From: Mobula birostris
Lineage: Eukaryota
NCBI RefSeq assembly: GCF_030028105.1
Contig: NC_092396.1
Coordinates: 31,437,474-31,501,473, forward strand
Direction of reading: 5' to 3'
Length of the DNA: 64,000 nt
The notes beneath the pieces are model-generated. The model saw only the letters and a list, made by a program, of their open reading frames with translations. It was not told the origin of the DNA and searched no databases. The position numbers were made by a program, and so were the translations under genes. Of the stretch, positions 7,631-45,860 are shown one piece after another; the stretch's first letter is position 1, and each line of letters starts with the position of its first letter.

Positions 7631-7649
7631 GTGTTTATTTCCATTTCAG

Positions 7650-19755: not shown

Positions 19756-20058
<303 letters not shown>

Positions 20059-20704
20059 CTAAGATTCAAGATTGTTTAATGTCATTTCCAGTACACGACT
20101 GTAAAGGAGAATGAAATAATTGTTACGCTAGATCTGATGCAGCACAAAAAAACCAAGAAGATAAAGAACACAAGAAAAACAATCAATATAAATACATAAA
20201 TAGCTTACATGCATAGATTTGGGAGCTTTATGAAAAACTTGTGAATAACTTTGGAAACAGGGAGCCAATTGCATACAGCACATTCCATATAGCTGAGATA
20301 TTGATGGAATGTTAGTCATGGCAATGTTGGCTGAGGCACAAATATTGTCCAGAACTAAACAGAGCAGAACCTGCTCTTCACCATGTAATATTTTACCCCT
20401 AAATGTAAATCCATTCCATTTTACATGGAACATCTTATACCCACCAGAGAGGACAAGCTGAGATTCAGCTTAACAACTGAAAGACAGTGTTTCGATCCCT
20501 AAATCCAGCTCTAAATGGCAGGGTGGATTATTACTTATGGCTCTAGAGTGGGGTCTAATGCAGAGGTAACGGTGCTGCTGGCCGATTCATGATGAAACTT
20601 CTCAGAGTTTGCCCCTCGGTGGCCGAATTAAGTCCCTGACCTTTTTCTCAACCACATCACAATGGTAGCACCACTGTGAAGTAGTTAAATATAGCTGCCT
20701 TTCA

Positions 20705-21052
<348 letters not shown>

Positions 21053-21698
21053 CTACTTTAAATATTGACTGAATTGTAATTTGTGTAAAATTGAGTGTGC
21101 CAGTTTTCAAAGCTTTTAATTCTTATTATTCCCCTTCTGCCAGATGAATTCAACAGTCAAACACATACTGACACAAAGCAGATACAATTTTCAGAGATGC
21201 AAATTAAGTAACTTACTTGAGTTTTGAAGTCACTCATAACCCACTGAAGCAGGAGTTGAGCAAGCTGTGTAGATTTTGGCTTAAACCTCAGTGTTTTAAA
21301 TTCAATTCTCTCGAGTTGAAGGTAGTGGCTGCCATCATTGTCTATGAGCAGCTGGTGATAAGCTACTCCTTTGATCTGTTGTAGAGTCAGTGATACCCGG
21401 AGAATGCACAACCTCCTTACAGAGGATGCCGGGATTCAACCTGAAATGTCGACAATTGCCCTCTTCCCTCAGGTGCTGCTTGACCCGCTGAGATCTTGCA
21501 CCACACCTGCTGTGCCTTTGACTCTAAACTGGTTTGGTGCATCACCATGTTCTAACATAATTTTCCAAAAAAGTACGGGCTGTGCAGGTGATGTTGATAA
21601 ACATTAAAGAATGTCATGCATTATGTGTGATCCTACCTGTTCACTACTCACTGAATGAACAGTAAGAATGAGCTCACCAGTGGCATGAGACTATCCAG

Positions 21699-23867
21699 GA
21701 CCAGAAGACATAGGAGCAGAATTAGGCCATTTGGCCCATCAGGTCTGTTGCACCATTCAATTATGGCTGATCATTTCTTTCCCCCTCCTCAGCCCCACTC
21801 CCTAGCCTTCTCCCTGTAACCTTTGATACCATGTCCAATCAAGAACCTATCAAGCTCTGCCTTAAATACACCCAATTATCTGGCCTCCACAGCTGCCTGT
21901 GGTAATAAATTCCACAATTTCACCACCCTCTGACTGAAGAAATTTCTCCACATTTTAAATGGATGTCCTTTCATACCGAGACTATGCCCTCTTGTCCTAG
22001 ACTCTCCCACCATGGGAAGCATCCTTTCCACAACTATTCTGTCTCGGCCTTTCAACGTTCAAAAGGTTTCAATGAGATCCCATGGACTAAACTCCAACGA
22101 GTACAGAATCAGAGCTATCAAATGTTCCTCACATGATAACCCTTTCATTCCCAGAATCATTCTTGTGGCCTCTCCAATACCAGCACATCTTTTCTTAGAT
22201 GAGGAGCCCAAAACTGTTCACAATACTCAAGGTGAGGCCTCACCAGTTCCTTATAAAGCCTCAGCATTACATCCCTGCTCTTGTATTCTAGACCTCTTGA
22301 AATGAATGCTAACATTGCATTTGCCTTCTTCATCACCAACTCTATCTGCAAGTTAACCTTTAGGGTGTTCTGCACATGGACTCCCAAGTCCCTTTGCATC
22401 TCAGATTTTTGGATTTTCTCCCCATTTAGAAAATAGTCTGCACATCTATTTCTACTACCAAAGTGCATGACCATGCATTTTCCAACTTGGTATTTCATTT
22501 GCCAATCTCCTAATCTGTCTAAGTCCTTCTGCAGCCTACCTGTTTCCTCAATACTACCTGCCCCTCCACCAATCTTCGTATCATCTGCAAACTTGGCAAC
22601 AAGGCCATCTATTGCATCATTGAAATCATTGATATACAGCATAAAAAGAACCCCCACAGAACACCACTATAATCACTGGCAGCCAACCAGAAAAAGATCC
22701 TCTTATTCCCACTTGCTGCCTCCTACCAATCAGCCAATGCTCTAACAATGCCTGCAAATTACCTGTAATACCATGGGCTCTTAATGTGGCACCTCGTCAA
22801 AGGCCTTCTGAAAGTCCAAATATACAACATACACTGCATCCCCTTACTCTATCCAACTTGTAATCACCTCAAAGAATTCCAACAGGTTCATCAGGCAAGA
22901 TTTTCCCTTAAGGAAACCATGCTGATTTTGTCCTATCTTGTCCTGTGTCACCAAGTACTCTATAACTTCATCATTAACAATTGACTGCAACATCTTCCCA
23001 ACCACTGAGGTCAGGCGGACTGGTTTATAATTTCCTTTCTACTACTTTCCTCCTTTCTCAAAGAGTGGAGTGACATTTCCAAATATCCAGTCCTCTGTCA
23101 CCATGCCAGAGTCCAAATGATTTATGAAAGAACACAATCTTTACCGTTACCTTTCAGAAATCTTGTGTGCAGTCTCCCTGGTCTAGGTGACTCATGTACC
23201 CTTAGGTCTTTCAGCTTTTTGAGCACCTTCTCCCTTGTAATAATAACTGCACTCATTTCTCTTCCCTCATACCCTTCAACATCTGGCACACTGCTAGTGT
23301 CTTCCACAGATGCAGGCTATTCATTTAGTTTATCTGCCATCTCCTTGTTTCCGCCCCCCTCCCCCCACACTGATTATTTCTCTGGCCTCATTTTCTACTG
23401 GTCCTATATCCACCCTTAGCTCCCTTTTTTATTTTAACTTGAAAAAGCTTTTACCATCCACTCTGACATTGTGTGTCAGCTTGCTTTCATATTTTGTTTC
23501 CCTCCTAATGATTATTTTGGTTGCACTCTGTGAGGTTTTAAAAGCTTCCCAATCCTCTGTCTTTTTACTAATTTTTGCTTTGTTGTATGCTCTTTCTTTT
23601 GCTTTTACATTAGCTTTGACTTTCCTTGCCATTTGAGTACTTCGTAATTTTTGGAATACATCTATCCTGCACCTTCCTCATTTTTCCCAGAAACTCACAC
23701 CATTGCAGCTCTGCTGTCATCCCTGCCAGCATCTCCTTCCAATTTACTGGCCAACTCCCTTCCCATACCACTATAATTTCCTTTACTTCGCTGAAATACT
23801 GCTACATCAGACTGTACTTTCTCCCTATCAAATTTCAAGTTGAACCCAATCATATTGTGATCACTGG
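21699..23867 (-). mobile_element. CR1-clade LINE (copy 2, inside the tandem duplication)
   Basis: Same translated fragments as 15848-18016, offset +5851. Confidence 0.9.
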
Positions 23868-25606
23868 ACGTGGGTGCACTGTTACCCTATAACTGACTGT
23901 GTGGATAAATATGTTGCTTTGACTACAACCAGATTTGAAGTATTGACAACAAATACTCAGCTGTGATCCACCAGGCTCCAAGCCCTAGATCTATGCTGAT
24001 ACATTGCTGAGCCTGGCAACTGTCACACCAAAGCTGAGTTGCTTAGGTCAGGGGACATCTGTTTTCAGAATGGTGGAAAGGCCTACACAGAACAGTTGAT
24101 GTTACGGCAGTTATCCAGATAGGGTTTTTTGAAGATGTGCAAAATAGTAGACGTAAGATGGGAAGGACAACATCTGGAAGGGAGTACAAAGGAAAGGATC
24201 ACAGACATCTGGAAAGATTGCTGGGATGAAGGATATAGTAAGCCCTATTTTCTTCAGAATTAAACAAGTAATTAAAAGATATAAATGATATTAAAATGCT
24301 CCTTTTTAATATTAGAGCAAATGTTTGGTAAGTGCTCTGTCCTCATTGGGCTATAGGATGCTTGTACCAGGGGTTGGAACTTGCCATTTCACACCTCCAT
24401 CATCAGCTTCAGACTTGCTCCGTAAGGCTGCAGAATAAAGTCTCTGCACCTCAGCTCTTTTTTTGTATTGTGTCACCTATGACCCTGGGGAAGCACTAAG
24501 CACCAGGATTTTTTTTTCCCCCAGGAAGAGCAGGAATGTTTTTGAAGATCTGCAGACCACTCTATATTTGGTAAATCACAGGCAGATTCTATGCCAGTGT
24601 TGACTGAGACCTGTCCCAAAATTTTACATTGAATGCGGATCTACCACCCTTTAGAGAATCACCCTCTGCTTCATAACTATTAGATCTATTGTCTCTGTCT
24701 TTTATTCACAAGCATGAGTTCTCTTATTTATTGTCAATCTTTAACACAAAGTTTATTTTTACTGTCTTAAGGACTTCTGTAATCCAGTGGCTAGGTGAAA
24801 CCCACACAGTGTGGCCATTATAAGCAACAACAGGGAAAGAGGGATAACTTTGATTTGAAAGAAAATAGGAAAACACTAGTCTGAAATACTAACGATTTAA
24901 GTGGAGAACACTTCCTTCAACAGAAATTTTATTTTCCAAATCAAAATTGAGGAAAAATCAATTTTTATTCATCAAAGATGTTAAAACCTGTGAAACAAAG
25001 ACAGACTTGTCGAGCCAAATTGTATGTTAGCCATTGTAGAATGGGCTTGAAAGTGCAAATGGCCTGATACTGTCCCAGTAAGGGACTAAAGAAAGCAAAT
25101 TATGAATCACTAAAGTCCATTTCCAATTGTAAATAATTCCAGTTACCACCTTACACATAAGAAATTCATGAATTCAGTCACAAATTGGAATATTGCCACT
25201 AAATATGGTATCTTGAGAATCACTTAATCTCATTCTTTGAGTCTATCCAGGAAAATGAGATTATATGCTGATTTCAAATATGAGTGCTGATAAGAGGCTA
25301 CTGGTTAAGGAAATGTTTTATTTATGGCCTGATGTTAGCTGTTAATGATTACTGAATTATGTTCTTTTGTTATTTTGTCTTGTGCTATTTTATGTGATCT
25401 ATAATTAATTTAGAGAATGCTATTTGCACTAAAGAAATGACAGATGAACAAGTCACGGACAGCCATTTCTTGGCTCTAAGGTAGTGTGTGAAAACCAGAA
25501 CATGAAAGAAACATTTCAAAAAAGTGGCGAGAAAGCATGGTATTTCTTAACCAAAGGTCTTTGTCAGGACCCGTTGAATATTCAAGACTGTTCTTGATGG
25601 GAGGCA

Positions 25607-25909
<303 letters not shown>

Positions 25910-26555
25910 CTAAGATTCAAGATTGTTTAATGTCATTTCCAGTACACGACTGTAAAGGAGAATGAAATAATTGTTACGCTAGATCTGATGCAGCACAAAA
26001 AAACCAAGAAGATAAAGAACACAAGAAAAACAATCAATATAAATACATAAATAGCTTACATGCATAGATTTGGGAGCTTTATGAAAAACTTGTGAATAAC
26101 TTTGGAAACAGGGAGCCAATTGCATACAGCACATTCCATATAGCTGAGATATTGATGGAATGTTAGTCATGGCAATGTTGGCTGAGGCACAAATATTGTC
26201 CAGAACTAAACAGAGCAGAACCTGCTCTTCACCATGTAATATTTTACCCCTAAATGTAAATCCATTCCATTTTACATGGAACATCTTATACCCACCAGAG
26301 AGGACAAGCTGAGATTCAGCTTAACAACTGAAAGACAGTGTTTCGATCCCTAAATCCAGCTCTAAATGGCAGGGTGGATTATTACTTATGGCTCTAGAGT
26401 GGGGTCTAATGCAGAGGTAACGGTGCTGCTGGCCGATTCATGATGAAACTTCTCAGAGTTTGCCCCTCGGTGGCCGAATTAAGTCCCTGACCTTTTTCTC
26501 AACCACATCACAATGGTAGCACCACTGTGAAGTAGTTAAATATAGCTGCCTTTCA

Positions 26556-26903
<348 letters not shown>

Positions 26904-28125
26904 CTACTTTAAATATTGACTGAATTGTAATTTGTGTAAAATTGAGTGTGCCAGTTTTCAAAGCTTTTAATTCTTATTATTCCCCTTCTGCCAGATGAAT
27001 TCAACAGTCAAACACATACTGACACAAAGCAGATACAATTTTCAGAGATGCAAATTAAGTAACTTACTTGAGTTTTGAAGTCACTCATAACCCACTGAAG
27101 CAGGAGTTGAGCAAGCTGTGTAGATTTTGGCTTAAACCTCAGTGTTTTAAATTCAATTCTCTCGAGTTGAAGGTAGTGGCTGCCATCATTGTCTATGAGC
27201 AGCTGGTGATAAGCTACTCCTTTGATCTGTTGTAGAGTCAGTGATAAAGGTACTGCAAAGTTCCTTTAGAATGGGTCATTATCCAGTGAAAATGCAGCAA
27301 ATCAGGATAGCATCCACATTGAAAGGGGCTTTAAGATGGCCATGTTATGGTCAATGGACCAGACTTTCCCAAGTAATGAAAATTGCTGGGTGAATCTTTA
27401 TGTCACTGTTGCACTGTACATACACTGTAGCACAGATGGTGGAGGAAGTTAAACATTTAAGGTAAATTGATGTTTAACCCACTTTGACCACCAAACAGAA
27501 AGCATTTCACTCTTCAGATTTTAGGATCTGTTAAGAGCCGCAGGGTGCCTGACATCTCGACAATGATTGCAATCTAGAAAAGGATGCTCTTAAGTGGCCC
27601 ATTTCCTGTCATGTGATCAGAGCACAAGGCAACGACTGCAGGAAAAGCTAACAACCACACGAAAGTAGGTCTCTAAAACTGCCGCTGGAGATAAAGTTCA
27701 CAGCTTTTATGTAACCAGGGAGCAGGCTACATGCTCAATCAAATAATTCGGTTTGCAGCTACTTTTCAAAAGCAAGTAACAATGATGAATTTCAGATTCC
27801 AGGTGTCTAATACAACCACCATTGATGGAGAAGGAACACAAAATGCCTCTGACTCACATAGAAGACACTTAAGGAATGGAGGAAGCCGAGGGTGTGACCT
27901 GATAGAGGGATGTAAACTTACGAAAGGATGTTTTTCCCATATTAGGGGGTGGCTACGACAAGACAGAATGGGTTGAAGGTGCGAGATAGGAGGCTTTAAA
28001 GGGGATCTGAGGAGGAAATTTTTCACAAAGTCTAGAGCACACTGCCTGAAGAGGTGGTGGAGGCAGATACTCTCTGCATTTAACAAGCATCTATTTGAAT
28101 CACCAAGGCATAGAATACTATATTT

Positions 28126-28205
28126 CAGGGGTTCCCAACCTTTTTTATGCCATGGATCAATACCATTACGCAAGGGGTCTGTGGACCCTAGGCTGGGAAC
28201 TCCTG
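28126..28205. mobile_element. hAT MITE, same family as 10667-10745, inserted in a CR1 fragment
   Basis: CAGGGGTTCCCAACC...GGGAACTCCTG; flanks ctatattt/ctatagat. Confidence 0.78.
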
Positions 28206-29047
28206 CTATAGATGGATCTAATGTAGATAGGTACACAGGAAGCGTGGACACGATAGGCCTGTTTCTGTGCTCAATAACTCCCTGATATTTCTATATTTAT
28301 TTTGTTGTAGAAAGAGGCCATTCAAGCCATTGAATCTATGCTGGGTCACAGTGCAATCCCATTTGCCAACTATGTTTCTATGTAACCTATTCCCCCTGCA
28401 TTCCTGTACCTCATTTACACCCACCCCCTCCACCCCGAGATCAGTGGTATGCCTTTAGGATGTGGGGTGAAATTGGAATACTGGTGGGAAACTCACATGA
28501 TTACAGGGATAATACGCAAACTCCACACAAACAAAACCAGAGGTCAGGATTTAACCCAGGTCACTGGAGTTGTGAGGCAGTTCTACGATCTATACCACCG
28601 TGCCACTCCTATCCTGATTCTATTCTGGTCATAGACAGCCTGAGAACCCAACCTATTCTTTGCCCTGAACCCAGTATTTGTGGAACTTGCGCTGAAATCA
28701 GGAAGGTTCCTAGTTCGAAATTCAAAGCCATATTTAATCGCAATGATCTAAATTCCACTCTGCAAGGTACGCAGGCTGAATTTTCTTCACAGGTGGACAA
28801 AGGAATTGTAAGTAAACAGGAACTTCCAAAGCAGAAGCAGCTACGTTAGCAGATCTCAGTGACATTCTCTCAATTTGGAGGTTTGCAAAGCTGGAAAGGA
28901 GCTTTGACAACCACAAACTGTCAACCAGATCAGCTATCTGTGTTTTTCAGAGCAAATCTGTGGCCATGGAAAACTAGGGTGAGTCCAAAACAATGAGGAA
29001 GCAGTGCAAAGGTATTGCATAACTTTAAGGCTGCTTGTACCTTTCGA

Positions 29048-29913
<866 letters not shown>

Positions 29914-31323
29914 TCAGGGCTTCACAGAATTTAAACAGCATGGAAACCGACCTTGTGGCCTACCAAATTCAGGGTGGCTACTGAGATCCCAGGCTATGCC
30001 GATCCCAGTTTGTTATTCTCTCCATGTTCCCATCAACTCTCCATACATTCTACCACTTATCCACACACCAGATGCAATTTAAACCACCCAGTTAACTTAC
30101 CAGCCCTCATTTGTTTGTAATGTGGGATGGAACCCAGAGATCAGGAGAAGAAACAGAGATTAGGATTCGGCCCGTGACACTGCAGCTGTGGGTCAGTAGC
30201 TCTGTCAGTTGGCCCATGTTCACTACTGATCTGTCAGTCAGATCAGAAGACCGTACAACATGTGAATCCGAAACCCAACTTCACCTTACGTCTTCAGTCC
30301 CATATCCCCCATTCTCTCGCCTAAACTTTCAGTTGCCCTCAGGAATTTTATGGGAAGACATTTCCAGATTGTCCAAGGAAGCATTTCCATGTATCACCCC
30401 ATCCACCAGCTTCAGCTTTTATGTAATTTTAAAGCTTATGAAGTGAAAGATTTAGCTGTGCACTGGAAGTATCAGTAAATTCCCTTCTTGGTTTCAAACA
30501 TGTCTAACAGTAAACACATATAAAAAATACTGCTACCATTCCCCCGATGAGTCAATAGGGAAACTACTGCCAAGTGGGGAAGTTCATTTTAAATTTATTC
30601 ACTATTTTGAATGTAGGATCACTGGTCAGACAAGCACTGATGGCCCTTCAGAAGGGAGTGGGTGAACTATTCCTTTAACCACTGTGGTGCTTCTGGTGAA
30701 TTTACTATCACAAAGCGGTTGGTAGGAAGTTCCAGGAGTGCCAAATTGAACTAATCCCTTTTGCTTCCACATGGTCCATATCCTTCCATTCATTGCAGAT
30801 GTTCTTGGTGATAGATGTCACACATTTGGGAGATACCAATGGAGGAAGAACTGCAGTGCACTTTATGGACAGCACACAGTTACAGACAGTAACTGTGCAC
30901 GTGCAATGGATGTCTGAAGTGATGGAAGGGATGCCGGTGAAGTGGACTGCGTTCTCCTGGACAGTGTTGGGGTTCTTGAGTGTTGCTGGATCTCCATTCA
31001 TCCGGGCAAGTGGAGAGCATTTCAATTCACTTGTGTCTTGTAGATGATGGAAAAGCTTTGGTAAGTCAGGAGTAAGCAACTTGCCACAACGTACCAACCC
31101 TCTTATCTGCTTCTGTTCCCAATGTGTTTGTTTTTTATTTATTTATAGATACCATGCAGAATAGGTCCGGCTGGCCCTTTGAGATGAGCTGCCAGCAACC
31201 CACCAACTTAATAGCCAAACCACAGGACAATTTACAATTAACCTACTAACCGGTATATCTTTGGACTGTGGGAGGAAACCGGAGCACCCGGAGGAAACCC
31301 ACGCATTCGTTTGGAGGTCTTAC

Positions 31324-31865
31324 AGAATACAAGGTATTGTTCCTCCAACCCCAGTCTGGCCTCATCGTGACAGCCATAGCCACCCATTTTAATTCCACTT
31401 CCCATTCCCATTCAGATATGTTACACCTTATTTGGATAGCCTCCAACCTGATGGCATGAACATCGATTTCTCAAATTTCCAGTAATGCCCCCCACCCCTC
31501 TCCTTCACAATTTCCCATCCCCTTTCCCCTCTCTCACCTAATCTCCTTGCCCACCCATCTCCTCCCTCTGGTGCTCCTCACTCCTTTTACTTTCTTCCCT
31601 GGCCTTCTGTCTCTTTCACCAATCAACTTCCCAGCTCTTTATTTCATCCCTCCCCCTCCAAGTTTCACCTATCATCCTGTGTTTCTCTCTCCCCTCCCCA
31701 CCTTTTAAATCTACTCCTCGGCTTTTTGTCCCTCAGTCCTACCAAAGGGTCTCGGCCCAAAACGTCGACTGTACTCTTTTCCATAGATGCTGCCTGGCCT
31801 GCTGAGCTCCTCCAGCATTTTGTGTGTGTTGCTCGGATTTCCAGCATCTGCACATTTTCTCGTTT
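31324..31865 (+). mobile_element. Penelope-like element 3' fragment
   Basis: IATHFNSTSHSHSDM remnant, a polypyrimidine 3' region, and a pLTR with a degenerate hammerhead at 31734-31771. Confidence 0.8.
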
Positions 31866-32630
31866 GTAGCAGAATCATATTTGAAAGAAGTAGTAGTAAA
31901 AGAAGCAGTTTCATGAACTGTCTGAAGGACGTTGCCTTTGGTCACATTGTTTGCTGGTGCCATCTTCTTCCGTTCTTGGGCCTGGTTTACTCCTGCTGTT
32001 GTAATCCTGCTAGCACAACTCGCAGCTTGGCTAGAGGCATGGCCAATGCTAAGGTGGACATTTTTTGTGTTACAGACAGCATCTGCTTTCATGGACTGGA
32101 TGGTTAGATTAGCTCTCAGCTGCTTTTTTATAATGTGTGGAACTGAATGGACGGCAGCCATTCAAGTATCAGGTCCAACCAAACAATCCTAGTTTCAGTC
32201 CCTCAGTTGCCTTGAATTAATTTATTTGAATCAGTGCAAGAACTGAAATGTTACAAACTGGTGGTAGTTCAGCTGGTAAAGCTGCTGCCTCACAAAATGA
32301 CCTGAGGGATTCAATCCTGACCCTGGCTACTGTCTATATGGTGTTTACATGTATAGCCTGTGATTATTTGTGTTTTTCAAAAATATCAGAAACATTCAGA
32401 TGTGATGAGATTGATTTAGAGGGCCCTTGACTTAGTGATGTCAACACTCAGTGCTTTAAGAAGACAATCCACTACTGTATTCCCTGGCCAATAAATCCCC
32501 AGTCACGTTCACAAAATAAAAGATTCATCAGTTCCTCCAGTATTTTGTGTGTGTTCTTCAAGATTTCCAGCATCTGCTGAATCTCTTGTGTTAACTATCG
32601 ATCTTCTCCAAAAAAAAATGGGACTGATAG

Positions 32631-33707
32631 ATGTCCTCCTTTTTTAAAGGAAGGGGCTTCCCTTCCTCCACCATCAACTCTGCTCTCAAACGCATCTCCC
32701 CCATTTCATGCACATCTGCACTCACTCCATCCTCCCGCCATCCCACTAGGAATAGCAGACATCCCACCCTGCAAAAACTCATTTCAGGGAGGTAGCACCA
32801 TCAATTTGCAGGAGACTCCTGGAACTTGCGGGAGAGCTGGGATGTCTGCAATAGAGTAGCTCCTTAGCAGCTAGCCAGCTAGTTTAAATAACGTTAGCTA
32901 TGCTAATGAACGAATGACACCTGTTAAACTCACCTCAACATGTCTTTTACAGTCTAACCCACCATGGGCAATAGAAACCAGCAGGCCAGGCAGCATCTCT
33001 AGGAAGAGGTACAGTCGACGTTTCGGGCTGAGACCCTTCGTCAGGACAACTGAAGGAAGAGCTAGTAAGAGATTTGAAAGTGGGAGGGGGAGGAGGAGAT
33101 CCAGGGGGAGATCGTTTCGCTGAACACCTACGCTCTGTCCGCCAGAGAAAGCAGGATCTCCCAGTGGCCACACATTTTAATTCCACGTCCCATTCCCATT
33201 CTGATATGTCTATCCACGGCCTCCTCTACTGTAAAGATGAAGCCACACTCAGGTTGGAGGAACAACACTTTATATGCCGTCTGGGTAGCCTCCAACTTGA
33301 TGGCATGAACATTGACTTCTCAAACTTCTGCTAATGCCCCACCTCCTCCTTGTACCCCATCTGTTATTTATTTATATACACACATTCTTTTTCTCTCTCT
33401 CCTTTTTCTCCCTCTGTCCCCCTCACTATACCCCTTGCCCATCCTTTGGGTTTTCCTCCCCTCCCCCTTTTGTCCCATGATCCTCTCATATCCCTTTTGC
33501 CAATCACCTGTCCAGCTCTTGGCTCCATCCCTCCCCCTCCTGTCTTCTCCTATCATTTCAGATCTCCCCCTCTTCCTCCCACTTTCAAATCTCTTACTAG
33601 CTCTTCTTTCAGTTAGTCCTGACAAAGGGCCTCGGTCTGAAACATCGACCGTACCTCTTCCTTGAGATGCTGCCTGGCCTGCTGCGTTCACCAGCAACTT
33701 TTATGTG
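32631..33707. mobile_element. Composite Penelope-like insertion with 12-bp TSD
   Basis: TGGGACTGATAG at 32619-32630 and 33708-33719. It contains a PLE RT/linker remnant, a DNA-transposon-like piece, an inverted pLTR, the GIY-YIG endonuclease C-terminus (GDRFAEHLRSVR..PVATHFN..LEEQHFICRLGSLQLDGMNIDF) and a 3' pLTR. Confidence 0.85.
33012..33052 (-). ncRNA. Minimal type I hammerhead ribozyme motif (Penelope-like pLTR), catalytic core intact
   Basis: The minus strand reads CAGTT-GTC CTGACGA A GGGT-CTCA-GCCC GAAAC GTC GAC-TG. This gives stem I (GUC/GAC), CUGANGA, stem II, GAAA, palindromic ACGU in place of helix III, and a GUC cleavage triplet. Confidence 0.75.
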
Positions 33708-35002
33708 TGGGACTGATAGCTGTTCTCCAGGCCTTGAATCTCTGATCTAGTTTGAGGTTTGGGTTACAGAGAAAGAATATTTCCACTGGCACTCGACTGT
33801 AAGTGAGATGCTAACCATAACTTCCTTAAATGATCTTTGCAGCTTTAACATTCAGAATTCTGTCAAAGACTTGAACATGTTCCACAACAAATGTGGTCAA
33901 TTTAATGTGAAGTCCTTTGCAACATCATCCTGAGGTTACATAAATGGAAATCTTCATATCTAACTTGCTGGTATGGGACACAGATTGTCCGACGCATCTA
34001 CCAACTCACTTCATATGTAAAGTGTTGCACTTAGCAACATCCTGAACATAAGAAAGAAAATATTTTAATTCCGATTTTTTACCCAACTGTCAGACCTGAT
34101 TCACACATTGTAATTGTAAATAAAAAAGTTTCACTTCTCGTTAAGAGGACGTTTCAGTTCAGCATCCGCCCAGCCAGACAGATGCACTCTCCTCACTTCC
34201 AACGGAAATGTACTTAGACCTTTTTATTTAGAACTTAGATCTTGAAAACCACAAGAAACCAAGGGGCTGAGATAGTGTTTCTATTTTCATGGTCCATCAG
34301 TAGCTTGAGGGCAAATCGCAATTTCCCAATTGTTCTCTCAGCAGGTTTTTGGCCAAAGAGAACTTTTACTGCTTTTCCTGGCAAGATGCTTGGATTCCTC
34401 CCATTGGCAACCAGCTGTCTCCCCCGGTCCAGTTCGAAGAAACCAAGTGTCTGCCTCACTAAACAGAATCGTACTGAACAGGCTGCCTGCATCACTCCAA
34501 CTCACCCCAATCAACCATCTCCCCAGGACAGTTTCCACACCCAGGCCTGCTCCAAGATATGCCAAACAGCCATCTGCCCATCTCCACCCACAAAAATTTG
34601 CTCCCATTCTGCCTATGATACACATGAACCAAACTATTTACTTCAACTTGTACCACGTGGCCACCCACCACAACCCATTTATTATTCCAACTCTAACCAT
34701 TCAACAGTTTATCCCACTCCATCCCTCCCCAGTTGGTTTATCTATGTACTCTGTATCAACAAACCCTCCTGAATGCAACAAACATATGCTACTCCTTCTA
34801 AGCCTTCAGCAGCTTGTCAATGAGCAGATTCATTCTCAGCCAGCCAGTTTACTACACTACACACTCCATGCCAACAAGTTGTCTAGCTCACTTCATCTCT
34901 TATCAACCAGTTTCTGTCCTCCACCTCTGCCCCACCCAACCAAACTGGCAGCTGCTGCAGTTTACCCCATACTAAACCGCTATCTACCCCAGTTTATTTC
35001 CT

Positions 35003-35300
35003 ACCAACCAGCTCTCTGCCCCAATTCCCATCACACCAACCAGCACTCTGCCCCACTTCCCATCACACCAACCAGCACTCTGCCCCACTTCCCATCACAC
35101 CAACCAGCTCTCTGCCCCAATTCCCATCACACCAACCAGCACTCTGCCCCACTTCCCATCACACCAACCAGCTCTCTGCCCCAATTCCCATCACACCAAC
35201 CAGCACTCTGCCCCACTTCCCATCACACCAACCAGCTCTCTGCCCCACTTCCCATCACACCAACCAGCTCTCTGCCCCACTTCCCACCACACCAACCAGC
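35003..35300. repeat. 32-bp minisatellite, 9 full copies plus a partial
   Basis: Unit ACCAACCAGC(T/A)CTCTGCCCCA(A/C)TTCCCATCAC starts every 32 bp from 35003 to 35259. Confidence 0.95.
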
Positions 35301-36314
35301 CTTCCCCAATCACTGCCACTTCCCAGTCCAGCCACCACCGACAAGCCACTTCTCCCACAGCACCAGCTGTTTGCCCCACAGCACCTGTACCAACCAAGTG
35401 TTTATCCCACACAATCCCAACAAACCAAGTGAATGCCCCGCTCCAGGCTGGAATTGGGGTTGAGAGGAAAAATGGATCAGCCATGATGAAATGGCGGAGC
35501 AAACGCGACGGGCCAATAGCTCAATTCTGCTCTTGTGTCCTCTGGTATCAATCATCCACTTCTTACTTTTGTCCCAAACTAACCAGCTATGAGCTTTACC
35601 CCACTAGAGACCCACCTGTTATCTACCCCTTCCCACTTTAAATCTTTCAGCGGACTCCCCACTCTTCCCCAGCTGTCCCTTCCATTCTCTCCACTGCATC
35701 CATACTGACCAATCTGCCCATCTCTGTTAATCCCACTTGTCTGCTTTAGGCACTTACCCCTCCAACAAGTACCAATTCAATTGCCATTTAAACATCGTCA
35801 TTGCATCTGCCTCCACTGTCTCTTCAGTCAGCTTGCTCCAAATATTGTGTGAAAGACTTGCCCTTCGGATCTCCTTTAAATTTCTCCTCTCACGTTAAAC
35901 CTGTCCTCCTCGTCCTAAACTTCCCCTTCCTGGGATAAAAGATTCTGGTGACCTATCCCATGTATGCCTACATAAGCAAACTAAGTAATCTTTTCACTCC
36001 ACTACCCAGCTGTATCATCACATTCAGAAAACTATGGACATGGATCACAAGGTCTCTCTGTACATCAGCACTTTCTAAGGTCCCTGTGTTTACTTTATAC
36101 AGTACATCCCGTCAGAATTTGACCTCTCAAAGTGGATTACCTCACACCCATCTGGATTAAATTCCATCCAATATTTCAACTCACTAATGTGCAATGTTAT
36201 CCTTAAATTCTCTTGTTCATTACTACAGCTCCACTAATTATTGTGTATGTGCAGACTTACTAATCATATTCCATGCATTTTCAGGTTACTGGCCGTGTGA
36301 ATACCCGTTGTTTT

Positions 36315-37150
36315 CAAAGTTCAAGTAAACTTATTATCGAGGTACATATATGTCAAATACAACCCTGAGATTCATTTCCTGTGGGCATACTCAATAATTC
36401 CATAGAATAATAACCATAACAGAAACAATGTAAGTAAGTACGTGTTTGGGACAGCATTGTGGGCTGAAGGGCCTGTATTGTGCTGTAGGTTTTCTATGTT
36501 TCTTTCTTTGTAATGAAAGACCGCACCAACTTGGGCATTCAACCGCTGTGCAAAAGACAACAAACTGCGCAAATACAAAAAGAAAGAAATAGTAACAACA
36601 AATAAGTAAGCAATAAATAGCGAGAACGTGAAATAAAGAGGTCTTGAAAGTGAGCCGGAAGGTTGTGGGATTGGTTCAATGATGGACAAGTGAAGTTGAG
36701 TGAAATTATCCCCTTTGGTTAAGAGCCCGATGGTAGCAGCATGAACAGAGCACGTCCTGGGTGATGGAGGGTCCCTGATGATGGATGCTGCTTTCCTGCA
36801 ACAGCGTTTTGTGTAGGTATGCTCAATAGTGACTTTACCTGTGATGGTCTGGGTTATATCCAATACTCTTTGTAGGATTTTCTGTTCAAGGGAATTAGTG
36901 TTTCCATACCAGGCTATGATGTATCCAGTCAATATACTCTCCACTACACATCTATAGAAGTTTGTCAAAGTTTTAGATGTCATGCTAAATCTTTGCACAC
37001 TCCTAAGAAAGTAGAGGCACTGCTGTAATTGCACTCACATGCTGGGCACAGGTTGGGTCCTTGGAAATAATACTGAGGACTTTAACGTTGCTGACCCTCT
37101 TCACCTCTGATCCTCTGATGAGGACTCTGGTTTCCTATTCCTGAAGTTTA
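36315..37150 (-). mobile_element. Rex1-like LINE 3' fragment
   Basis: LYFLRSVQRF...LTNFYRCVVESILTG..AWYGN...RKAASIIRDP. Confidence 0.75.
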
Positions 37151-38202
37151 GGAGCATGCTAGAGGGAGAAAAACTTATGGGGCTCCAGGCAAAGAGCTGG
37201 TGGATAGGATTGACCAGATAGTCTTACAGGGAGCTGGCTTGATGCGCCAAATAAACTCTTTCCATATTGAAAAAAGATTGCCAAACTCTTAACTGCTCCC
37301 ATCTGATTGATGTTTGCAGAACATACCTGACTTCTGTCATTGAAACTGCTGGAGTCCTACACACAGGAGCCAGAGCACCCTTCAAAAATGCAGGCAAATT
37401 TGAATAAGGTGACTGGGAGGGGAGAATGGAAAGATAAAGGTGGAAATGCCAATGAGAGAGAACAGAGGAATACTGTGTGATAATGAAGACAGTAATACTT
37501 CAGTGGTCTACCACTGATTAATTATATACCCTGATGCTTTGGCCAATTCCATCAAATTATCCACACACACCAGCCTCTTGATCCATAAGTATAACCATCC
37601 AATATTTTCACTTGTGATTCCCCACAACACTCAGATTATAATAACCCTACTCTGTATTTTATTTTATTGAGGCATGGCAAAGAGTAGCTCCTTCTGGCCC
37701 TTCGAGCCAATTACCAATTAACCTACCAACTGGTACATCTTTGGACTGTGGGAGGAAACCGGGGCACTCGGGAAAACCACATGGTCATGGAGAGAACATA
37801 CAAGCTCCTTACAGGGCGCGGTATTAGTATTGGTTTACTATTGTTACCGTGATACAGCAAGAAAGCTTGTCTTACATACTATTTATAGAAATCAAATCAC
37901 AGTGCACTGAGGTAAATCAACAACACTGCAAAATAAAGTTTAACAGCTGCAGAGAAAATGCAGTGCAGGTAAAAACTAAGGTGGAAGATCAAGGAATCTC
38001 TCTGGTTGTACTTGACGCACATGGGTATTTTGAATCTGCTTGCATCAGCAACCACTGGTGCCCCAAGCTGTGAATTGGCACGTCTTAATGGGTGAGGGAC
38101 AGGAGAATGGTTACTTTAGAATCAGAGCCTCAGGGAATGGGTGGATTGAGCAGAAGGAAGGTGATCTCCAACAGCAGAGAAAGAATCTATAATTGAATTA
38201 CA

Positions 38203-39035
38203 GGGAGGTGGAGCGAAGTTAAGATGGCGGCAAACGGTGACTCCTTTACTTGCATCTTCGGAAACAGCTCTATTTTCATCTTTAATATCTTTATTTTTCC
38301 CTTTCAGGGTTCTTTTGAAGACCCAACCTGGAGTTACACGCTGACTACGGTTCTTTGCGGGAATGGGACCCGCTCTCGGGGCTTCAGGACTGGCCATTGT
38401 TTGGCATGGCAAGGGTTTGGCCTGACAGTCCAGCTTGAATTCGGAAGCCTAAGATCTCAGGACTCTGGGGACGGCTGGATCAAAGGTCGGTGTCACGGCA
38501 GGAGACGCATGTGTCGTTGGGGGAGTCGGAAAACCTACTGCTGTGGGCCTGAAGATCCGGGATCTTTGCGATTTTCAGGCACAGAGCTCGAAAAAAGTGA
38601 TGTAACGGATTTTTAACATCGGAAACCAGAGAGTTACTTGTTACATCTCCCCGCTCGCTGGGAAAATGGAGACACCTCTTTCTCCCTTATTAGGGAGAGA
38701 GAGAATCTGCGGTATGTCAAATGCCGAGTGAAACTCAAAGTCTTTGGGGTAAATGCAAGTCTGTGTCTTTGCTATTGTTTTGCTCACGCTTGAGTGCTTG
38801 GTGGTGGGTGCTGATGCTATTTTTTGCTGGTGGGGGGAAGGGGGGGGGATTATTGTTCCCTGCCGCTTACACACAGGAGGGAGGGGAGTTGGGGAAGGGG
38901 GGGACTTTGGGGTTCTTACATTTGACTGTCGTTTATTCTTTGGGGCACTTCTCTGTTCTCATGGATGTTTGCGAAGAAAAAGCATTTCAGGATGTATATT
39001 GTATACATTTCTCCGACAGTAAATGTACCTTTGAA
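38203..39035 (+). mobile_element. Non-autonomous retroposon with a CpG-rich 5' end and Rex1-like 3' tail (a similar element lies at about 684-1340)
   Basis: Both start near AAGATGG(C/T)G and end in gtatatt/gtataat...aaatgtac(c)tttgaa, a tail shared with Rex1 fragments in the window. Confidence 0.5.
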
Positions 39036-39704
39036 TGACAAGAAGAGGTGCACTCTGTGCACAAACATCGTAGAATCGGGCACTACAAAGTGTTGCATTA
39101 ACATCAGGTCCTTCAGCGCAGCACAGTGACGCAGCCAGTGGAGCTGCTTGCTTCCCAGCTCCAGAGACGCAGGATCAATCCTGACCCAGTGCTGTCTCTG
39201 TGGAGTGTGTACATTTTCTCTGTGATTGCACAGGTTTCACTTGGACGCTCTAGTTTCCAGTAGATTAACTTGCCACCGTAAATTGGCCCTTGTGCAGTTT
39301 AATAGGAGAATCCGGGAGAAGTTGGTGGAAATGTGAGGAGAATAAGTTACAGGAAAAATTAATGGGGGGCTGAGACTGCTCTTTGAGCTGGTATAGACTT
39401 GATGGAACAATTAGATGCCTATATAGGAAGGAAATATTGAAATAATATAGATCTGTCAGGTTTCAATAGCCATCTACTATCATTTCACTAACGGCTATAA
39501 GAGGGAATGCTATAGGTGTTCCTCAGCTTGGCTCCCATTCTTCATTTTGTTCCACAACATTGCCTAGAACTGTGCTTGTATGAAGGTTGGCTGAAGGTCC
39601 ATTGGGTTCATTTAGCAGGCAATAGGGTTCACCTGGGCAATGATGCCCTCTACAGTTGAGTGGGCCATTGCCACTAAGTGCCACAGTTCCTGCCTGAAAC
39701 TCTA

Positions 39705-40088
<384 letters not shown>

Positions 40089-42026
40089 CTACTAGTAGAC
40101 AGTGCATGGGTGTTTATCACCTGCTGGGAATTACTCAACGTATTTCTGAACATCCATGAACACCACCTCACTATACTGCAGATGCTGGAAATCCAAAGCA
40201 ACACACACACAAAATGCTGGAGAAATTCAGCAGGTCAGGCAGCATCTATGGAGGGAAATGAATAGTTGATATTTTGGGCCAAGACTCTTCATCACAATTG
40301 GTTAAAAAAAAGAGGAAATATAATGCAGAAAAATGAGAGATCATCCAAAATATAAAAGCAGAATATTTTTGAAATGGTGAGAAATTAAAAGGTATTTGTT
40401 TTTAAAGGGACTGGGTTATCCTTATGTAATTGTTTATTTGGGTGGCGGGGTGGAGGTACATCTCTACCAAAGGAGATGTAAGGTGCTCCTTCCCTCCACC
40501 AGCCTGCAGGTGCCCCTTGGGCAAAGTGTAGCACCTGCTTAGCCCTCGATCAGGGTCACATGAAGCCCTGGACGCAGGTGGTGGACGGTCGTATGAGCAG
40601 CCAGTGCATATCACGTCTTGGTTATGCGACCACCGCCAGACAATCTCTGACGAGTATTGATAATGGCTGGGGCCACTCGTCTTGTGAAGACACTGCCCAG
40701 AAGAAGGCAATAGCCAACAATCTCCGTAGGAAAATTTGCTAAGAACAATCAGAATCAGAATTATTATCACCGGCATGTGACGTGAAATTTGTTAACTTAG
40801 CAGCAGCAGTTCAATGCAATACATAATATAGAAGAAAAAAAGTAATAACTAAATCTTATTCAGTATACTTTATACAGTATACGTATATTGAATAGATTAA
40901 AAATCATGCAAAAAACAGCAACATTATATGTATTAAAAAGAAAGTGAGGTAATGTCCAAGGGTTCAATGTCCATTTAGGAATCGGATGGCAGAAGCTGTT
41001 CTTGACCATGATCACCTATGTCATACAACACAGCACATAACGATGACAATGATGAATGATTTACTAAAATTTTACAGGCAATTTAGAAGCCTAATGGGAC
41101 ATTGGCGCTTAGTCCAATGGAATTTAAATTGAAAAATAAAGATGTATAAATACAATTATTCAGAGCTCTGGTGAAGCTGCATATGGAATATTGTGTTTAG
41201 ATAGTCAACGTGGACTCAGATGGATGAAGGGTCCCTTTGGGTGCTTATCCTTCTGTATGGCCTCCTGATCCTAGTGAGGGATACATCTGTTGTACAGGGT
41301 GTACAGCGATAGTTCACCATTTGATTCCTGAGACCAGGGTTTTATATTATAAAAAGAGAATACCCAGACTCGCCTCATAGTCTCCAGCATTTTGAACAGC
41401 AAGATCTCACTAAACGGCACAAATTCTGACGGTGCCTGATGGAGCGTGTGCAAGGGTGAGGATTGAACTGACTGGCATGTCCAGAACCGGGGGTCACAGT
41501 CTCAAACTGTAGGGTTAGCCACTCTTTCTCAGATGAGAAGGAATGGGTCTTTGTAATTTTTAACCAAGAGGGCTGTGGAGGATTAGTCGCCGAGGTTGAT
41601 AAACTTTTGGATATTAAAAGGATCAAAGTATAAGGGGTCGGTGCAAGAAATTCATGCCCAGGTAGATAAGCAGCTATGATCTTACAGGACATGCAGAAGG
41701 GGCAGAATGGCCTGCTATGTTTACTTCTCATGTTTTAAATGTTGTCTATGCTTCCTTCTCACCTGCACCCTTGCCCTCCATACCCCTACCATCCATGTAC
41801 CTAACCAAACTTCCCTTAAACGTTGAAATCGAGCTTGCATACACCACTTGCGCTGGCCGCTCATTCCACACTCTCATGACCCCCCTAGTGAAGAGGTATC
41901 CCCTCATGTTCCGCTTAAACTTTTCACCTTTCACACTTAACCCATGACCTCTGGTTGTAGTTCCACCCAACCTCAGTAGAGAAAACCTGCTTGCATTTAC
42001 CTCATCTATACCCCTCAATTTTGTAT

Positions 42027-44208
42027 ATAACCATATAAACATATAACAATCACAGCACGAAAACAGGCCATCTCTACCCTTCTAGTCCGTGCCAAACTCT
42101 TACTCTCACCCAGTCCCACCGACCTGTACTCAGCCCATAACCCTTCATTCCTTTCCTGTCCATACATCTATCCAATTTAACCTTAAACGACAACATCGAA
42201 CCTGTCTCAACCACTTCTGCTGGAAGCTTGTTCCACACAGCTACCACTCTCTGAGTAAAGAAGTTCCCCCTCACGTTACCCCTAAACTTTAATAAGTGTC
42301 ATAAGATGAAGAAGGTCTTCAGCTATGACACAGATGAACAGAATTATGTGAATCAAGCACAGATGTGCAAGAGGGATGGAGCATCTAATAATCAAAGTGG
42401 TAAGTGATGTGATTCACATATGGCCATCAAACCTGACTGCCTCAGATCTTGCTGTATAATGAATTTACTTTTTGTGAAATACTTGGGCAAATTTGTTGAG
42501 GGATATTGGAAACTTGGTTCGGAAAAAGAGAGGGATCTTCAATAAATATAGGCAGCTTGGAGTTAATGAGGTGCTCGAGGAATATAAAGAATGTAAAAAG
42601 ATTCTTAAAAAAGAAATTAGAAAAGCAAAAAGAAGATACGTGGCTGCTTTGGCAAGTAAGGTGAAAATAAATCCAAAGGGTTTCTACAGTTATGTTAATA
42701 GCAAAAGGATAGTGAGGGATAAAATTGGTCCCTGAGAGAATCAGTGTGGACAGCTATGTGTGGAGCAAAAAGAGATGGGGGAAGATTTTGAACAATTTCT
42801 TTTCTTTGGTATTCACTGAGGAGAAGGATATTGGATTGTGTAAGGTAAAGGAAACAAGAAGGGTAGTTATGGAAAGTATGACGATTAAAGAAGAGGAAGT
42901 ACTGGCGTTTTTAAGGAATATAAAAGTGGATAAGTCTCCAGGTCCAGACAAGATATTCCCTGGGGCCTTGAGGAAAGTTAGTGTGGAAATAGCAGGGGCA
43001 CTGACAGAAATATTTCAAATGTCATTAGAAACGGGGGTGGTGCCGGAGGATTGGCGTATTGCTCATGTGGTTCCATTGTTTAAAAAGGATTCTAAGAGTA
43101 AACCTAGCGATTATCGGCCTGTGAGTTTGACGTCAGTGGTGGGTAAATTGATGGAAAGTATTCTTAGGGATGGTATATATAATAATCTGGATAGACAGGG
43201 TCTGTTTAGGAACAGTCAACATGGATTTGTGCGTGGAAGGTCATATTTGACAAATCTTACTGAATTTTTTGATGAGGTTACTTAGAAAGTTGACGAGGAT
43301 AAAGCGGTGGATGTTGTCTATGTGGACTTCAGTAAGGCCTTTGACAAGGTTCCACACGGAAGGTTAGTTAGGAAGGTTCAATCGTTAGGCATTAATATCG
43401 AAGTAGTAAAATGGATTCAGCAGTGGCTAGACGGGAGATGCCAGAGAGTAGTGGTGGATAACTGTGTGTCAGATTGGAGGAGGGTATGTAGCGGTGTGCC
43501 TCAGGGATCTGTACTGGGTCCAATGTTGTTTGTCGTAAATAGTAATGATCCGGATGATGGGGTGGTAAATTGGATTAGTAAGTATGCAAATGATACTAAA
43601 ATAGGTGGCGTTGTGGATAATGAAGTAGGTTTTCAAAGCTTGCAGACAGATTTAGGCCAGTTAGAAGAGTGGGCTGAAAGATGGCAGATGGAGTTTAATG
43701 CTGAAAAACGTGAGGTGCTACATTTTGGTAGGACTAATCAAAATAGGACTTACATGGTAAATGGTAGGGCATTGAAGAACGCTGTAGAACAGAGGGATCT
43801 AGGAATAATGGTGCATAGTTCCCTGAAGATGGAATCTCATGTGGATAGAGTGGTGAAGAAAGCTTTTGGTATGCTGGCCTTTATTAATCAGAGCATTGAG
43901 TATAGGAGTTGGGATGTAATGTTGAAATTGTATAAGGCATTGGTAAGGTCAGATTTGGAGTATTGTGTACAGTTCTGGTCACCGAATTATAGGAAAGATG
44001 TTAATAAAATTGAGAGAGTACAGAGGAGGTTTACTAAAATGTTGCCTGGGTTTCATCTCCTAAGTTACAGAGAAAGGTTGAACAAGTTAGGTCTTTATTC
44101 TTTGGAGCGTAGAAGGTTGAGGGGGGGACTTGATAGAGGTGTTTAAAATTATGAGGGGGATTGATAGAGTTGACGTGGATAGGCTTTTTCCATTGAGAAA
44201 GGGGAAGA
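42027..44208. mobile_element. Young CR1 (HER1-like) LINE with 5' inversion and a foreign insert, nested in an older CR1
   Basis: About 42498-44208 (+) encodes tether plus RT (DKSPGPD, YRPVSLTS, DFSKAFDKV, GVPQGSVLGP, YANDTK). 42027-42290 (-) is the 3' end and tail of the same family. Host CR1 halves are at about 41750-42026 and 44209-44330. Confidence 0.88.
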
Positions 44209-45195
44209 TCTCTATCAAATCTCCCCTCAATCTTCTACATTCCAAGGAATAAAGTCCTAACCTATTCATTTTTTTCCTTATAACTCAGGTCTTCTAGACC
44301 CAGCAACATCCTTGTAAATTTTCTCTGTAGTAGTCTGCAAGGTTGGATTGACGCAATCCAGCAAGAGGTCACTAAGTGGTTTGACAATAGGAAGAAGAGG
44401 ATGATGGTTGAAGGTTGCATTATGGACTGGAGGGCTGTGACTAGTGGTGTGCCACAGGGATCAGTGCTAAGCTCATTGTTGAGAATGCGCACAAAATGGC
44501 TACTTAGCAGATGACACCAAACTAGTCAGTAACGTAGACATTGAAAAAGGTTCTCAAAAAATGACAAGATCTTGATCTGCCAGGCAAATGGACTGAGGAG
44601 TGGCAAATAGCATTTGACTCAGATAAGTGCAAGGTAATGTACTTCAATCAGTCAAACCTTGGGAGGATTTTCACAGTGAACAGTGGGGTGCCAGGGAGTG
44701 CTGTACAAACAGAGGGACCCAGGAGTACAACGTATAATTCTCTAAGTTGGACAAAGGTCCTGGTCCCATACTCTGTAACTCTTCAGTGGACATCTGAGCT
44801 AGTTCCATATGACCACATGTCATCCACATCCCTCTAAACATTTCCTATTCATGCCCTTGTCCAGTTATCTTTTAGAAGTTATTTTTATACCTGTCTCACC
44901 CTCTCACCTTAAATCTTTGCCTCTAGTTTCTGATTTCCTTGCCCTGTGAAAGGACTGAATGTATGCCACTTATGATTTTGTACATCTCTATACGGTCACC
45001 CCTCCAAGAAGTCCTAGCGTGCCCAACCTCTCCCTATAACTCAGACCCTCTTCTGAGTGTATATACCTTATGTAACCACAAAGCAGGATAAATTCCTTAA
45101 AGATTAAGATACTTTACTGTTACCTGGTTACATTGCCTGCGCTTCAGGTCACTAGCAGTAACAACTAAATATCAATTAGTCAGTCTCCTTCTTAC

Positions 45196-45241
45196 CAGCA
45201 GCGCTAGGCGACTTGTCATTTCCAGGATCGCAGTCACTCAT
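45196..45241 (-). CDS. C1orf50: C1orf50 homolog (DUF2452), coding exon 1
   Basis: aacatcATG (A at -3) gives MSDCDPGNDKSPSAA plus 1 nt, then the donor G|gtaaga. Phase 1 matches the phase-1 start of exon 2. It lies next to a CpG island. Confidence 0.75.
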
Positions 45242-45289
45242 GATGTTAGTGGAGTCTCTAACCCACTCTGAATTCTCATGACACTGACT

Positions 45290-45860
45290 ACCTGCAAGCG
45301 TTTTTATCCCAGGGGCCTTCCTCGCTCCCCAGCGCGACTGTCCGCCGATCTTCCCGGACGAAGAGGCGTCCACAGGGCCCCCGCCGCCGAGCCGGGCCGT
45401 GCGCCCGGCTGTGGTTTCAAGCGTCAGTCGCGGAGACCGAGCTGAGAAATCTCGGGGGCTCGCCGAGGGGCCGAGACGCTGGCGGAGGGCGCACGTTGTG
45501 ATCGGGCAAGTGCGGTGGCAGCTCGCTGGCTTTGCCAGCTTGTGTAACAGCGCCTGTTTTGTCACAGCAGGAACTGCACCGTCGCCCAGAGCAAGCAATA
45601 CTTGTGTAACCCAGTGATGCAGTTCCAATCTCTTGCGACATTTAGTCCACCGCTATTTATTGTGCTCGAACGGCCACTGAAGATGGAGGGAAAGTGATAG
45701 GTCCCACATCCAGAGCAAATCTAACCCCCGTAATATTGAGGCGAGAGTGTTGGCTAAGACCGTGGGGAGAATTTGTCAGCTCTTTCATTGGTTTGACTGC
45801 TATACCCGCCAGAGACGGTGGTTGGTCTCTGCATTAACATTTCACCCACGCACTAAATGG
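45290..45860. promoter_or_regulatory. CpG island / promoter region of C1orf50 (possibly bidirectional)
   Basis: Strong CpG/GC enrichment at about 45300-45590, just upstream of the C1orf50 ATG. CCAAT boxes near 45626 (+) and 45788 (-, aaccaatga). Confidence 0.7.

Follow-up and report, generated by a model that had tools for sequence, protein, structure and literature searches.

For the minimal hammerhead ribozymes (min-HHRs) of Penelope-like elements (PLEs), PMC4209133 describes monomers as inactive and dimers as having low activity, and a review likewise calls PLE hammerhead multimers weak (PMC6765202, in the part concerned with these ribozymes). Dual min-HHRs are described 100-700 bp apart on opposite strands, and the legend of Fig S4A in the same source describes a truncated PLE that has an opposite-strand min-HHR at its 5' end (PMC4209133). 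An inverted, 5'-truncated copy that adjoins the insertion is given as typical of PLEs, and a CX2-5CxxC zinc-finger linker between RT and EN as a mark of Neptune and Nematis (PMC8557442). The hammerhead of an Anolis PLE required the PLE protein, and the relevant section of that source reports no RNA-seq ends at its site (PMC11167929). In Xenopus, one of nine retrozyme dimers cleaved and eight did not, and >40% of the retrozyme copies overlap introns (bioRxiv 10.64898/2026.07.22.740005).

We analysed a window of the Mobula birostris genome, by which we mean the whole 64,000-nucleotide stretch of DNA, for which a sequence-only reading had proposed a catalytically intact min-HHR, in sense orientation, within an intron of C1orf50. 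The motif in question is the following:

33012..33052, minus strand: minimal type I hammerhead motif with a complete core, 3-bp stem I, extra A, 4-bp stem II and ACGU palindrome

When re-read from 33052 to 33012 on the minus strand, every element of the proposed order GUC-CUGACGA-A-GGGU(CUCA)GCCC-GAAAC-GUC-GAC was recovered. Specifically, the 5' strand of stem I (GUC, 33047-33045) is followed by CUGACGA (33044-33038), the extra A (33037), the two strands of stem II (GGGU, 33036-33033, and GCCC, 33028-33025) around a CUCA loop, GAAA (33024-33021), C15.2-G16.2-U16.1-C17 (33020-33017) and the 3' strand of stem I (GAC, 33016-33014). The ACGU palindrome (33021-33018) stands where helix III would be and the predicted scissile bond is 33017/33016; these two features, the extra A before stem II and the short stem I are all as had been described. 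Stem I is 3 bp long and is followed by a U.U, while one more A in the sister copy extends it to 5 bp. The term 'catalytically intact' holds only for the sequence, where all core residues are present, and the motif is a putative ribozyme.

The published min-HHR descriptor (stem I of 3-7 bp, CUGANGA(+N), stem II of 3-7 bp, a loop of 3-10 and GAAANNUH; PMC4209133 Fig S7) has 33012..33052 as its sole match on both strands of the 64 kb. The same descriptor gave eight matches in 1000 dinucleotide shuffles of the window, or 0.008 per window, and a stricter descriptor of our own gave two matches in 200 shuffles. Further min-HHR features present in the motif are an extra base after A9 (A33037), a G10.1-C11.1 pair (G33036-C33025) and a palindromic 15.2-16.2 segment (ACGU, 33021-33018). 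A search with hammerhead models had been suggested by the sequence-only reading; an Rfam scan of the window returned no hammerhead up to E=5, only three weak unrelated matches. Folding of a 56-nt piece containing the motif does not stand out either (z=-0.36); both null results would be expected of a motif that has no helix III. Scans with the family motif pattern gave zero matches in viral contigs and zero in two scans of metagenome contigs.

Eight window copies, representing at least two subfamilies, have an alignable hammerhead region and were each scored against their own majority in a decay test. The pLTR (pseudo-LTR) remnants at 45.9 kb and 61.1 kb, which have no core region in alignment A1, and tail-only fragments at 32.5, 50.5 and 62.0 kb stand outside all eight-copy counts. 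Taken as a majority, the eight copies yield the complete core together with stems I and II, with 87.5% of the cells paired versus 12.5-41.7% in slid controls. The sequence-only reading had named a family consensus lacking stem I/II pairing as the finding that would undo it, and this objection falls away because the eight-copy majority pairs in both stems. Covariation in the stems amounts to one two-sided change among the eight copies, a value reached by 302 of 500 shuffles. A chance match to a short motif would sit well with this lack of covariation beyond shuffles, with the missing Rfam match and with the z of -0.36 for the 56-nt piece, but it is refuted by the rate of 0.008 descriptor matches per shuffled window, by the paired majority of the eight copies and by the motif lying just where a PLE pLTR would be expected to have it, and we give it a practically negligible probability. 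By the sequence features tested, 33012..33052 is a member of the PLE min-HHRs.

The motif is carried by a truncated insertion with an adjacent inverted piece, directly downstream of a separate fragment:

32631..32753, plus strand: a PLE piece of its own, from the part that follows the RT core, with 95% identity to residues 124-164 of the related protein P0001
32979..33101, minus strand: inverted, truncated pLTR fragment with the motif, 123 nt, matching the sister pLTR in 111 of 124 columns
33107..33334, plus strand: C-terminal remnant of a GIY-YIG endonuclease up to its stop codon, the element being 5'-truncated here
33335..33709, plus strand: 3' UTR, rich in CT, together with the main pLTR of this insertion, with loose ends at 33709
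33561..33684, plus strand: sister pLTR arm, the antisense of which is predicted to pair with the motif
33611..33651, plus strand: decayed hammerhead of the sister arm, with G8A, G16.2A and altered stems, antisense to C1orf50

Family sequence continues past 33709, and thus the tail of the insertion has been cut short. The separate fragment has an inverted pLTR tail and extends with it over 32530-32753, so that PLE pieces cluster at this point of the window. The pLTR that holds the motif is an inverted copy of the one lying 280 nt downstream of the GIY-YIG stop codon. This location, together with the descriptor match, supports the earlier assignment of the motif to the minimal type I hammerheads of Penelope-like pLTRs, a kind thought to act as dimers. 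The GIY-YIG remnant that had been reported beside the motif is upheld by homology, but it lies on the opposite (plus) strand because the motif sits in an inverted pLTR fragment. The remnant (33107..33334) is 74-91% identical to seven Mobula and Hypanus proteins and aligns to the C-terminus of P0001-P0003, which carry YIDD or YIDK; the Mobula protein that is 91% identical to it carries an RT with YIDD, a CX4CxxC linker and GIY-YIG. Pfam GIY-YIG is matched by five of the seven relatives, with E of 5e-4 to 2e-3 for P0001-P0003 and all matches below the curated cut-off (six lines scanned), and the remnant alone gives no Pfam GIY-YIG match. A search among protein representatives listed 407 relatives and nothing further.

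Features of EN+ PLEs found at this locus include a GIY-YIG domain C-terminal to the RT (through the relatives), a pLTR, 5' truncation and an adjacent inverted copy. The CX4CxxC linker occurs in P0001, P0002, P0003 and P0007; the window copy is without that part of the protein, and the linker is common to Nematis as well. We conclude that the insertion is a Penelope-like element, and likely one of Neptune type, a type assignment for which the linker is known from relatives only and is shared with Nematis. Across the inversion junction there is an 11-nt match between 33113-33103 on the minus strand and 33561-33571 on the plus strand, which is consistent with a template switch guided by microhomology. 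No target-site duplication was seen at the 33-kb insertion, the flanks having no shared word of at least 5 nt. The family is very abundant, with 19,313 to 230,364 contig records per run on 29000-33800 in four of the 15 listed sequencing runs, counts that give no copy number because this 4.8-kb stretch holds several repeats. Among the matches listed for the four runs, no piece bridges the motif and unique flank. We also considered a non-LTR retrozyme, the layout of which has head-to-tail tandem units, each with a type I hammerhead, and no coding remnant; it is ruled out for this motif, as the window copies are dispersed or inverted and are joined to EN remnants.

The host gene was mapped on the minus strand as five exons:

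45197..45241, minus strand: C1orf50 coding exon 1, 15 of 15 residues matching P0156, donor seen
39792..39907, minus strand: C1orf50 exon 2, from protein mapping
29770..29856, minus strand: C1orf50 exon 3, between the two sense motifs
26592..26723, minus strand: C1orf50 exon 4, 100% identical to a Mobula birostris protein
25607..25798, minus strand: C1orf50 exon 5, coding part, from protein mapping over 25798-25610

DUF2452 is matched by four minus-strand frames in profile order, the protein that is identical to exon 4 is named C1orf50 homolog and maps all five exons, and GT-AG ends are seen at exons 2-5 along with the donor of exon 1. Intron 2 thus runs from 39791 to 29857 on the minus strand, and the exon map confirms that 33012..33052 lies within it in the sense orientation, as had been proposed. 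Unique sequence of intron 2 has low-depth cover in three runs labelled 'RNA?', which may be DNA. The same intron holds a C-rich 32-nt minisatellite (34899-35364). Exons 4 and 5 are repeated by a 5851-bp tandem duplication (15544-21394 and 21395-27245) with only seven mismatches, which may be an assembly artefact or a very recent duplication. Head-to-head with C1orf50 (45197-45241, minus strand) lies the first exon of a Leprecan-family, P3H1-like gene (57734-58414, plus strand); the ~12.5 kb between them are full of LINE fragments, and this gene pair is adjacent in human also. Elsewhere in the window, AP5B1 occupies 7557-10280 on the plus strand, as a single open frame of about 900 codons. Just upstream of this frame is a pLTR copy at 7537-7577 (minus strand), a member of an inverted pair, in which CUGAUGA is intact and G12A and U16.1C are present. 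Dispersed repeats that resemble SINEs, having a tRNA-like head and a body in common, occur at 2969-3050, 6990-7071 and 53482-53563 and at 15476, 31218, 37698 and 48712 (families D3 and D8-D10); these are presumably known tRNA-derived SINEs of sharks and rays.

Among the eight copies, all 11 core positions are intact only in 33012..33052. Changes relative to the majority affect 15 of 88 core positions (17%) versus 41 of 216 non-core positions (19%; Fisher p=0.75), with rates of 0.375 versus 0.359 at CpG and 0.125 versus 0.118 at non-CpG positions, and p is 0.40-1.0 when either the shared A6C cells or the 33.0-kb copy is dropped. The pooled rates predict 1.06 intact copies in eight, and one was observed; the per-copy estimate of intactness (0.93) leans on one outlier copy, and the pooled figure (0.68) was used instead. 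These values fit a motif that was likely carried along as a passenger and kept its core by chance. The 33.0-kb copy could instead have been domesticated like the amniote intronic hammerheads of RECK and C10orf118 and kept by selection, such intronic domestication being known (PMC6155905). Its core is intact, all four core-region CpGs are retained, and its hammerhead region has two changes versus six in the same-age sister (one-sided p=0.14); for structure-breaking changes only, the comparison gives p=0.06 before allowing for its having been picked as the intact copy. The deficit of changes is not significant, yet it leans towards constraint. Domestication is opposed by the single intact copy in eight, which is the neutral expectation, by a predicted masking of the motif by its own arm (see below) and by the fact that the motif, with no helix III loop and a 3-bp stem I, has neither the canonical helix III nor the loop contacts between helices I and II that RECK-type ribozymes possess. 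Moreover, one of the two changes in the 33.0-kb copy is the loss of a stem I base, an A, that leaves this stem with 3 bp; other copies do have this base, in 15-21 contigs per run among the matches listed. We regard domestication as highly unlikely and chance survival of a passenger core as the preferred reading.

Within a minus-strand transcript, the motif follows the antisense of the sister pLTR at a distance of ~460 nt. Folding predictions, made with an equilibrium model that contains no proteins, helicases or editing, join arm and motif in a duplex of 124 bp and -221 kcal/mol in which 38 of the 41 motif bases are paired with the arm. The predicted probability of stem II is 0.0 in the presence of the arm, also for an RNA that ends just past the motif, and 0.90-1.0 when the arm is omitted; the inverted-arm region as a whole has a folding z of -15.8. 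The motif is therefore predicted, by this model, to be masked in the pre-mRNA by the antisense sister arm, and being zipped into a long duplex by its mirror copy it likely does not cut C1orf50 RNA. Transcription from an outward promoter within the inverted pLTR would yield an RNA that lacks the arm and might free the motif for cleavage in trans with intact copies among the many other family transcripts. PLE pLTRs contain promoters, according to the review cited above (PMC6765202), the family is very abundant in all four runs, and leaving out the arm brings the predicted probability of stem II to ~0.9-1.0. Yet this probability is only ~0.14 for an RNA starting at the inversion junction, stem I is shortened to 3 bp, dimers formed between molecules through 4 bp would need a high local concentration, and the active homodimer of the 33.0-kb motif lies ~14 kcal/mol above the best alternative dimer (nearest-neighbour energies, which here and for the heterodimer below leave out the tertiary energy of the core). 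Cleavage in trans from such a transcript is very unlikely in our judgement, and masking by the sister arm is the reading that we retain.

The sequence-only reading had also proposed that a second same-strand motif with an AACGUU palindrome could supply a dimer partner and that the pre-mRNA may be self-cleavable. The features concerned are these:

29047..29603, minus strand: 5'-truncated PLE with the second motif (GIY-YIG remnant at 29602-29439, UTR and pLTR)
29106..29146, minus strand: second sense motif, the proposed partner, with an A6C core, a G.U closing stem II and a GUU site, in intron 3
29620..29734, plus strand: inverted pLTR arm beside the second motif, also C6, predicted to mask it with -165 kcal/mol

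A second sense motif does exist, but it is located in intron 3 and not in intron 2. It reads CUGCUGA (A6C, a non-consensus core), has stem II closed by G.U instead of G-C and fails the published descriptor. In hammerhead geometry A14 and H17 are unpaired, and because of this only the ACGU of AACGUU can pair in an active dimer. In a heterodimer the strand that each core cleaves is that of its partner. The target of the intact core would thus be the GUU site of the second motif (29111/29110), whereas cleavage at the GUC site (33017/33016) would depend on the A6C core. For the 33.0-kb and 29.1-kb motifs to dimerise in C1orf50 pre-mRNA and cut it, with effects on splicing or output, they would have to find each other across 3.9 kb and exon 3, and both are predicted to be hidden in duplexes with their respective arms, at -221 and -165 kcal/mol. 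Both motifs are sense and are the only two such sense strands in 25500-45400, they have ACGU in common and a compatible GUC/GAC stem I, and a heterodimer of -10 to -12 kcal/mol can be drawn; the active form is, however, ~12 kcal/mol above the best alternative fold even in isolation (-11.8 versus -23.7). GUU sites are frequent among the published min-HHRs (PMC4209133), and A6C is not a null change, as cleavage occurs with Mn2+ (PMC7151607), but the A6C rates in Mg2+ given in that source are 0.004/min at 1 mM for one ribozyme and 3.6e-6/min at 0.3 mM for another (PMC7151607). With an A6C core, a place beyond exon 3 and both motifs predicted to be buried in antisense-arm duplexes, the 29.1-kb motif does not bear out the proposed cleavage, which we rate as extremely unlikely; self-cleavage of the C1orf50 pre-mRNA is not supported. 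As a separate observation, the inverted arm at 29620-29734 begins ~35 nt past the exon 3 donor (29769), and a long hairpin is predicted near this 5' splice site.

The A6C change is shared by three of the eight window copies, which have C at core position 6 at 29106-29146 (minus strand), 29668-29708 (plus strand) and 31731-31771 (plus strand). The last of these belongs to a further insertion:

31373..31870, plus strand: third truncated PLE, with a decayed C6-type hammerhead at 31731-31771

The 29.1-kb and 31.7-kb copies are separate insertions that are identical at 110 of 126 positions (87%), compared with 92/121 and 97/124, respectively, for their identity to the 33.0-kb copy. Shared ancestry would be likelier than repeated A-to-C transversions, and thus a subfamily may have spread with C6. 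On balance we consider C6 to be rather probably a subfamily trait, going by the sequences of these copies. According to the portions of PMC7151607 and PMC3088659 that treat this position, A6C strongly lowers cleavage in Mg2+ and keeps activity in Mn2+. The Bcep176 (C6) variant described there has the same core change as the proposed partner and the two other copies (PMC3088659, PMC7151607), with the difference that it is known from a phage ribozyme and an engineered type II ribozyme, both monomeric, while the ray C6 motifs are minimal PLE motifs, further decayed and putative. That C6 marks an active, Mn2+-selective and yet undescribed ribozyme is much less likely than its being a subfamily trait. 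It is an improbable proposition that a ray PLE subfamily spread with a C6 core (CUGCYGA) as the first vertebrate retroelement family on a Mn2+-preferring A6C hammerhead, one that would cleave as a dimer, would possibly be mixed with A6 copies and would be missed by CUGANGA searches. Our literature search found no C6 core variant in Penelope hammerheads, and Lunse et al. 2017 may already cover core variants. A search of the translated pLTR among proteins, made for a count of A6 versus C6, gave 24 candidates and none at E<=10. With its high copy number, the A6C core common to these copies could offer a natural variant that lends itself to testing.

Taken together, we hold with high confidence that 33012..33052 is a minimal type I PLE hammerhead on an inverted pLTR fragment, likely a passenger that survived by chance and predicted to be masked by the sister arm. 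In an active element, the literature suggests, two copies of such a motif on a tandem transcript would join by their ACGU segments, and the dimers would cut after GUC, slowly and probably with the protein of the element. The inversion at 33 kb may be the product of a template switch, guided by a short microhomology, while the element was being reverse-transcribed. A polymerase on the minus strand would then make the sister antisense first, and the motif would zip into the 124-bp duplex while emerging, after which neither stem II nor a dimer would form; with the motif masked in the pre-mRNA, intron 2 would therefore be spliced normally. The same masking would apply to read-through on the other strand, so that inverted insertions would neutralise their own ribozymes. 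The prediction that inverted pLTR insertions bury their own hammerheads in double-stranded RNA would explain why introns tolerate them, and masking by an arm could be a cheap filter for calls of an 'intact intronic ribozyme'. If the pre-mRNA were truly cut, a host gene of a cartilaginous fish would be under the action of a ribozyme from a retroelement, but the evidence is against it; as things stand, the motif adds a further copy to a known class of ribozymes, within a ray repeat that is very abundant.

Our literature searches returned nothing fitting on PLE hammerhead ribozymes in sharks or on Neptune PLEs in elasmobranchs and nothing on Penelope transposable elements in Mobula, and the searchable supplement text of PMC4209133 has no match for Callorhinchus, shark or Leucoraja. 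Compared with the intronic hammerheads of RECK and C10orf118, the ray motif is also of type I, intronic and on the sense strand; those ribozymes are conserved and of canonical form, having helix III as well as tertiary contacts, whereas the ray motif is minimal, young and repeat-borne (PMC6155905, as far as its description of these two goes). PAc Poseidon of Anolis is likewise a vertebrate PLE with a pLTR hammerhead, but it is intact and, when assayed, cleaves only with its own protein (PMC11167929), while the ray copy is a dead fragment without protein. With the Neptune EN+ PLEs, in the features listed in PMC8557442, the insertion shares the C-terminal GIY-YIG domain and the 5' truncation with an adjacent inverted copy, and the linker is found in relatives that are 86-91% identical; it differs in that the window copy has neither RT nor linker, and Nematis has the linker too. 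The nearest likeness is to the PLE min-HHRs of Cervera & de la Pena 2014 (PMC4209133, in the features set out there), with which the motif shares CUGANGA plus an extra base, G10.1-C11.1, the palindromic 15.2/16.2 segment, a 3-bp stem I with no helix III loop, a pyrimidine-rich upstream region and a second motif on the opposite strand, 570 bp off, at the 5' end of a truncated element. What sets it apart from those cases is the ray host and the masking by a sister arm, which was computed here and does not appear in the consulted parts of PMC4209133. The arrangement seen at 33 kb is already published, and the min-HHR of the Acropora digitifera Neptune element described in PMC4209133 has nearly the same layout, with a 3-bp stem I, CUGACGAA, a 4-bp stem II and CGUC.
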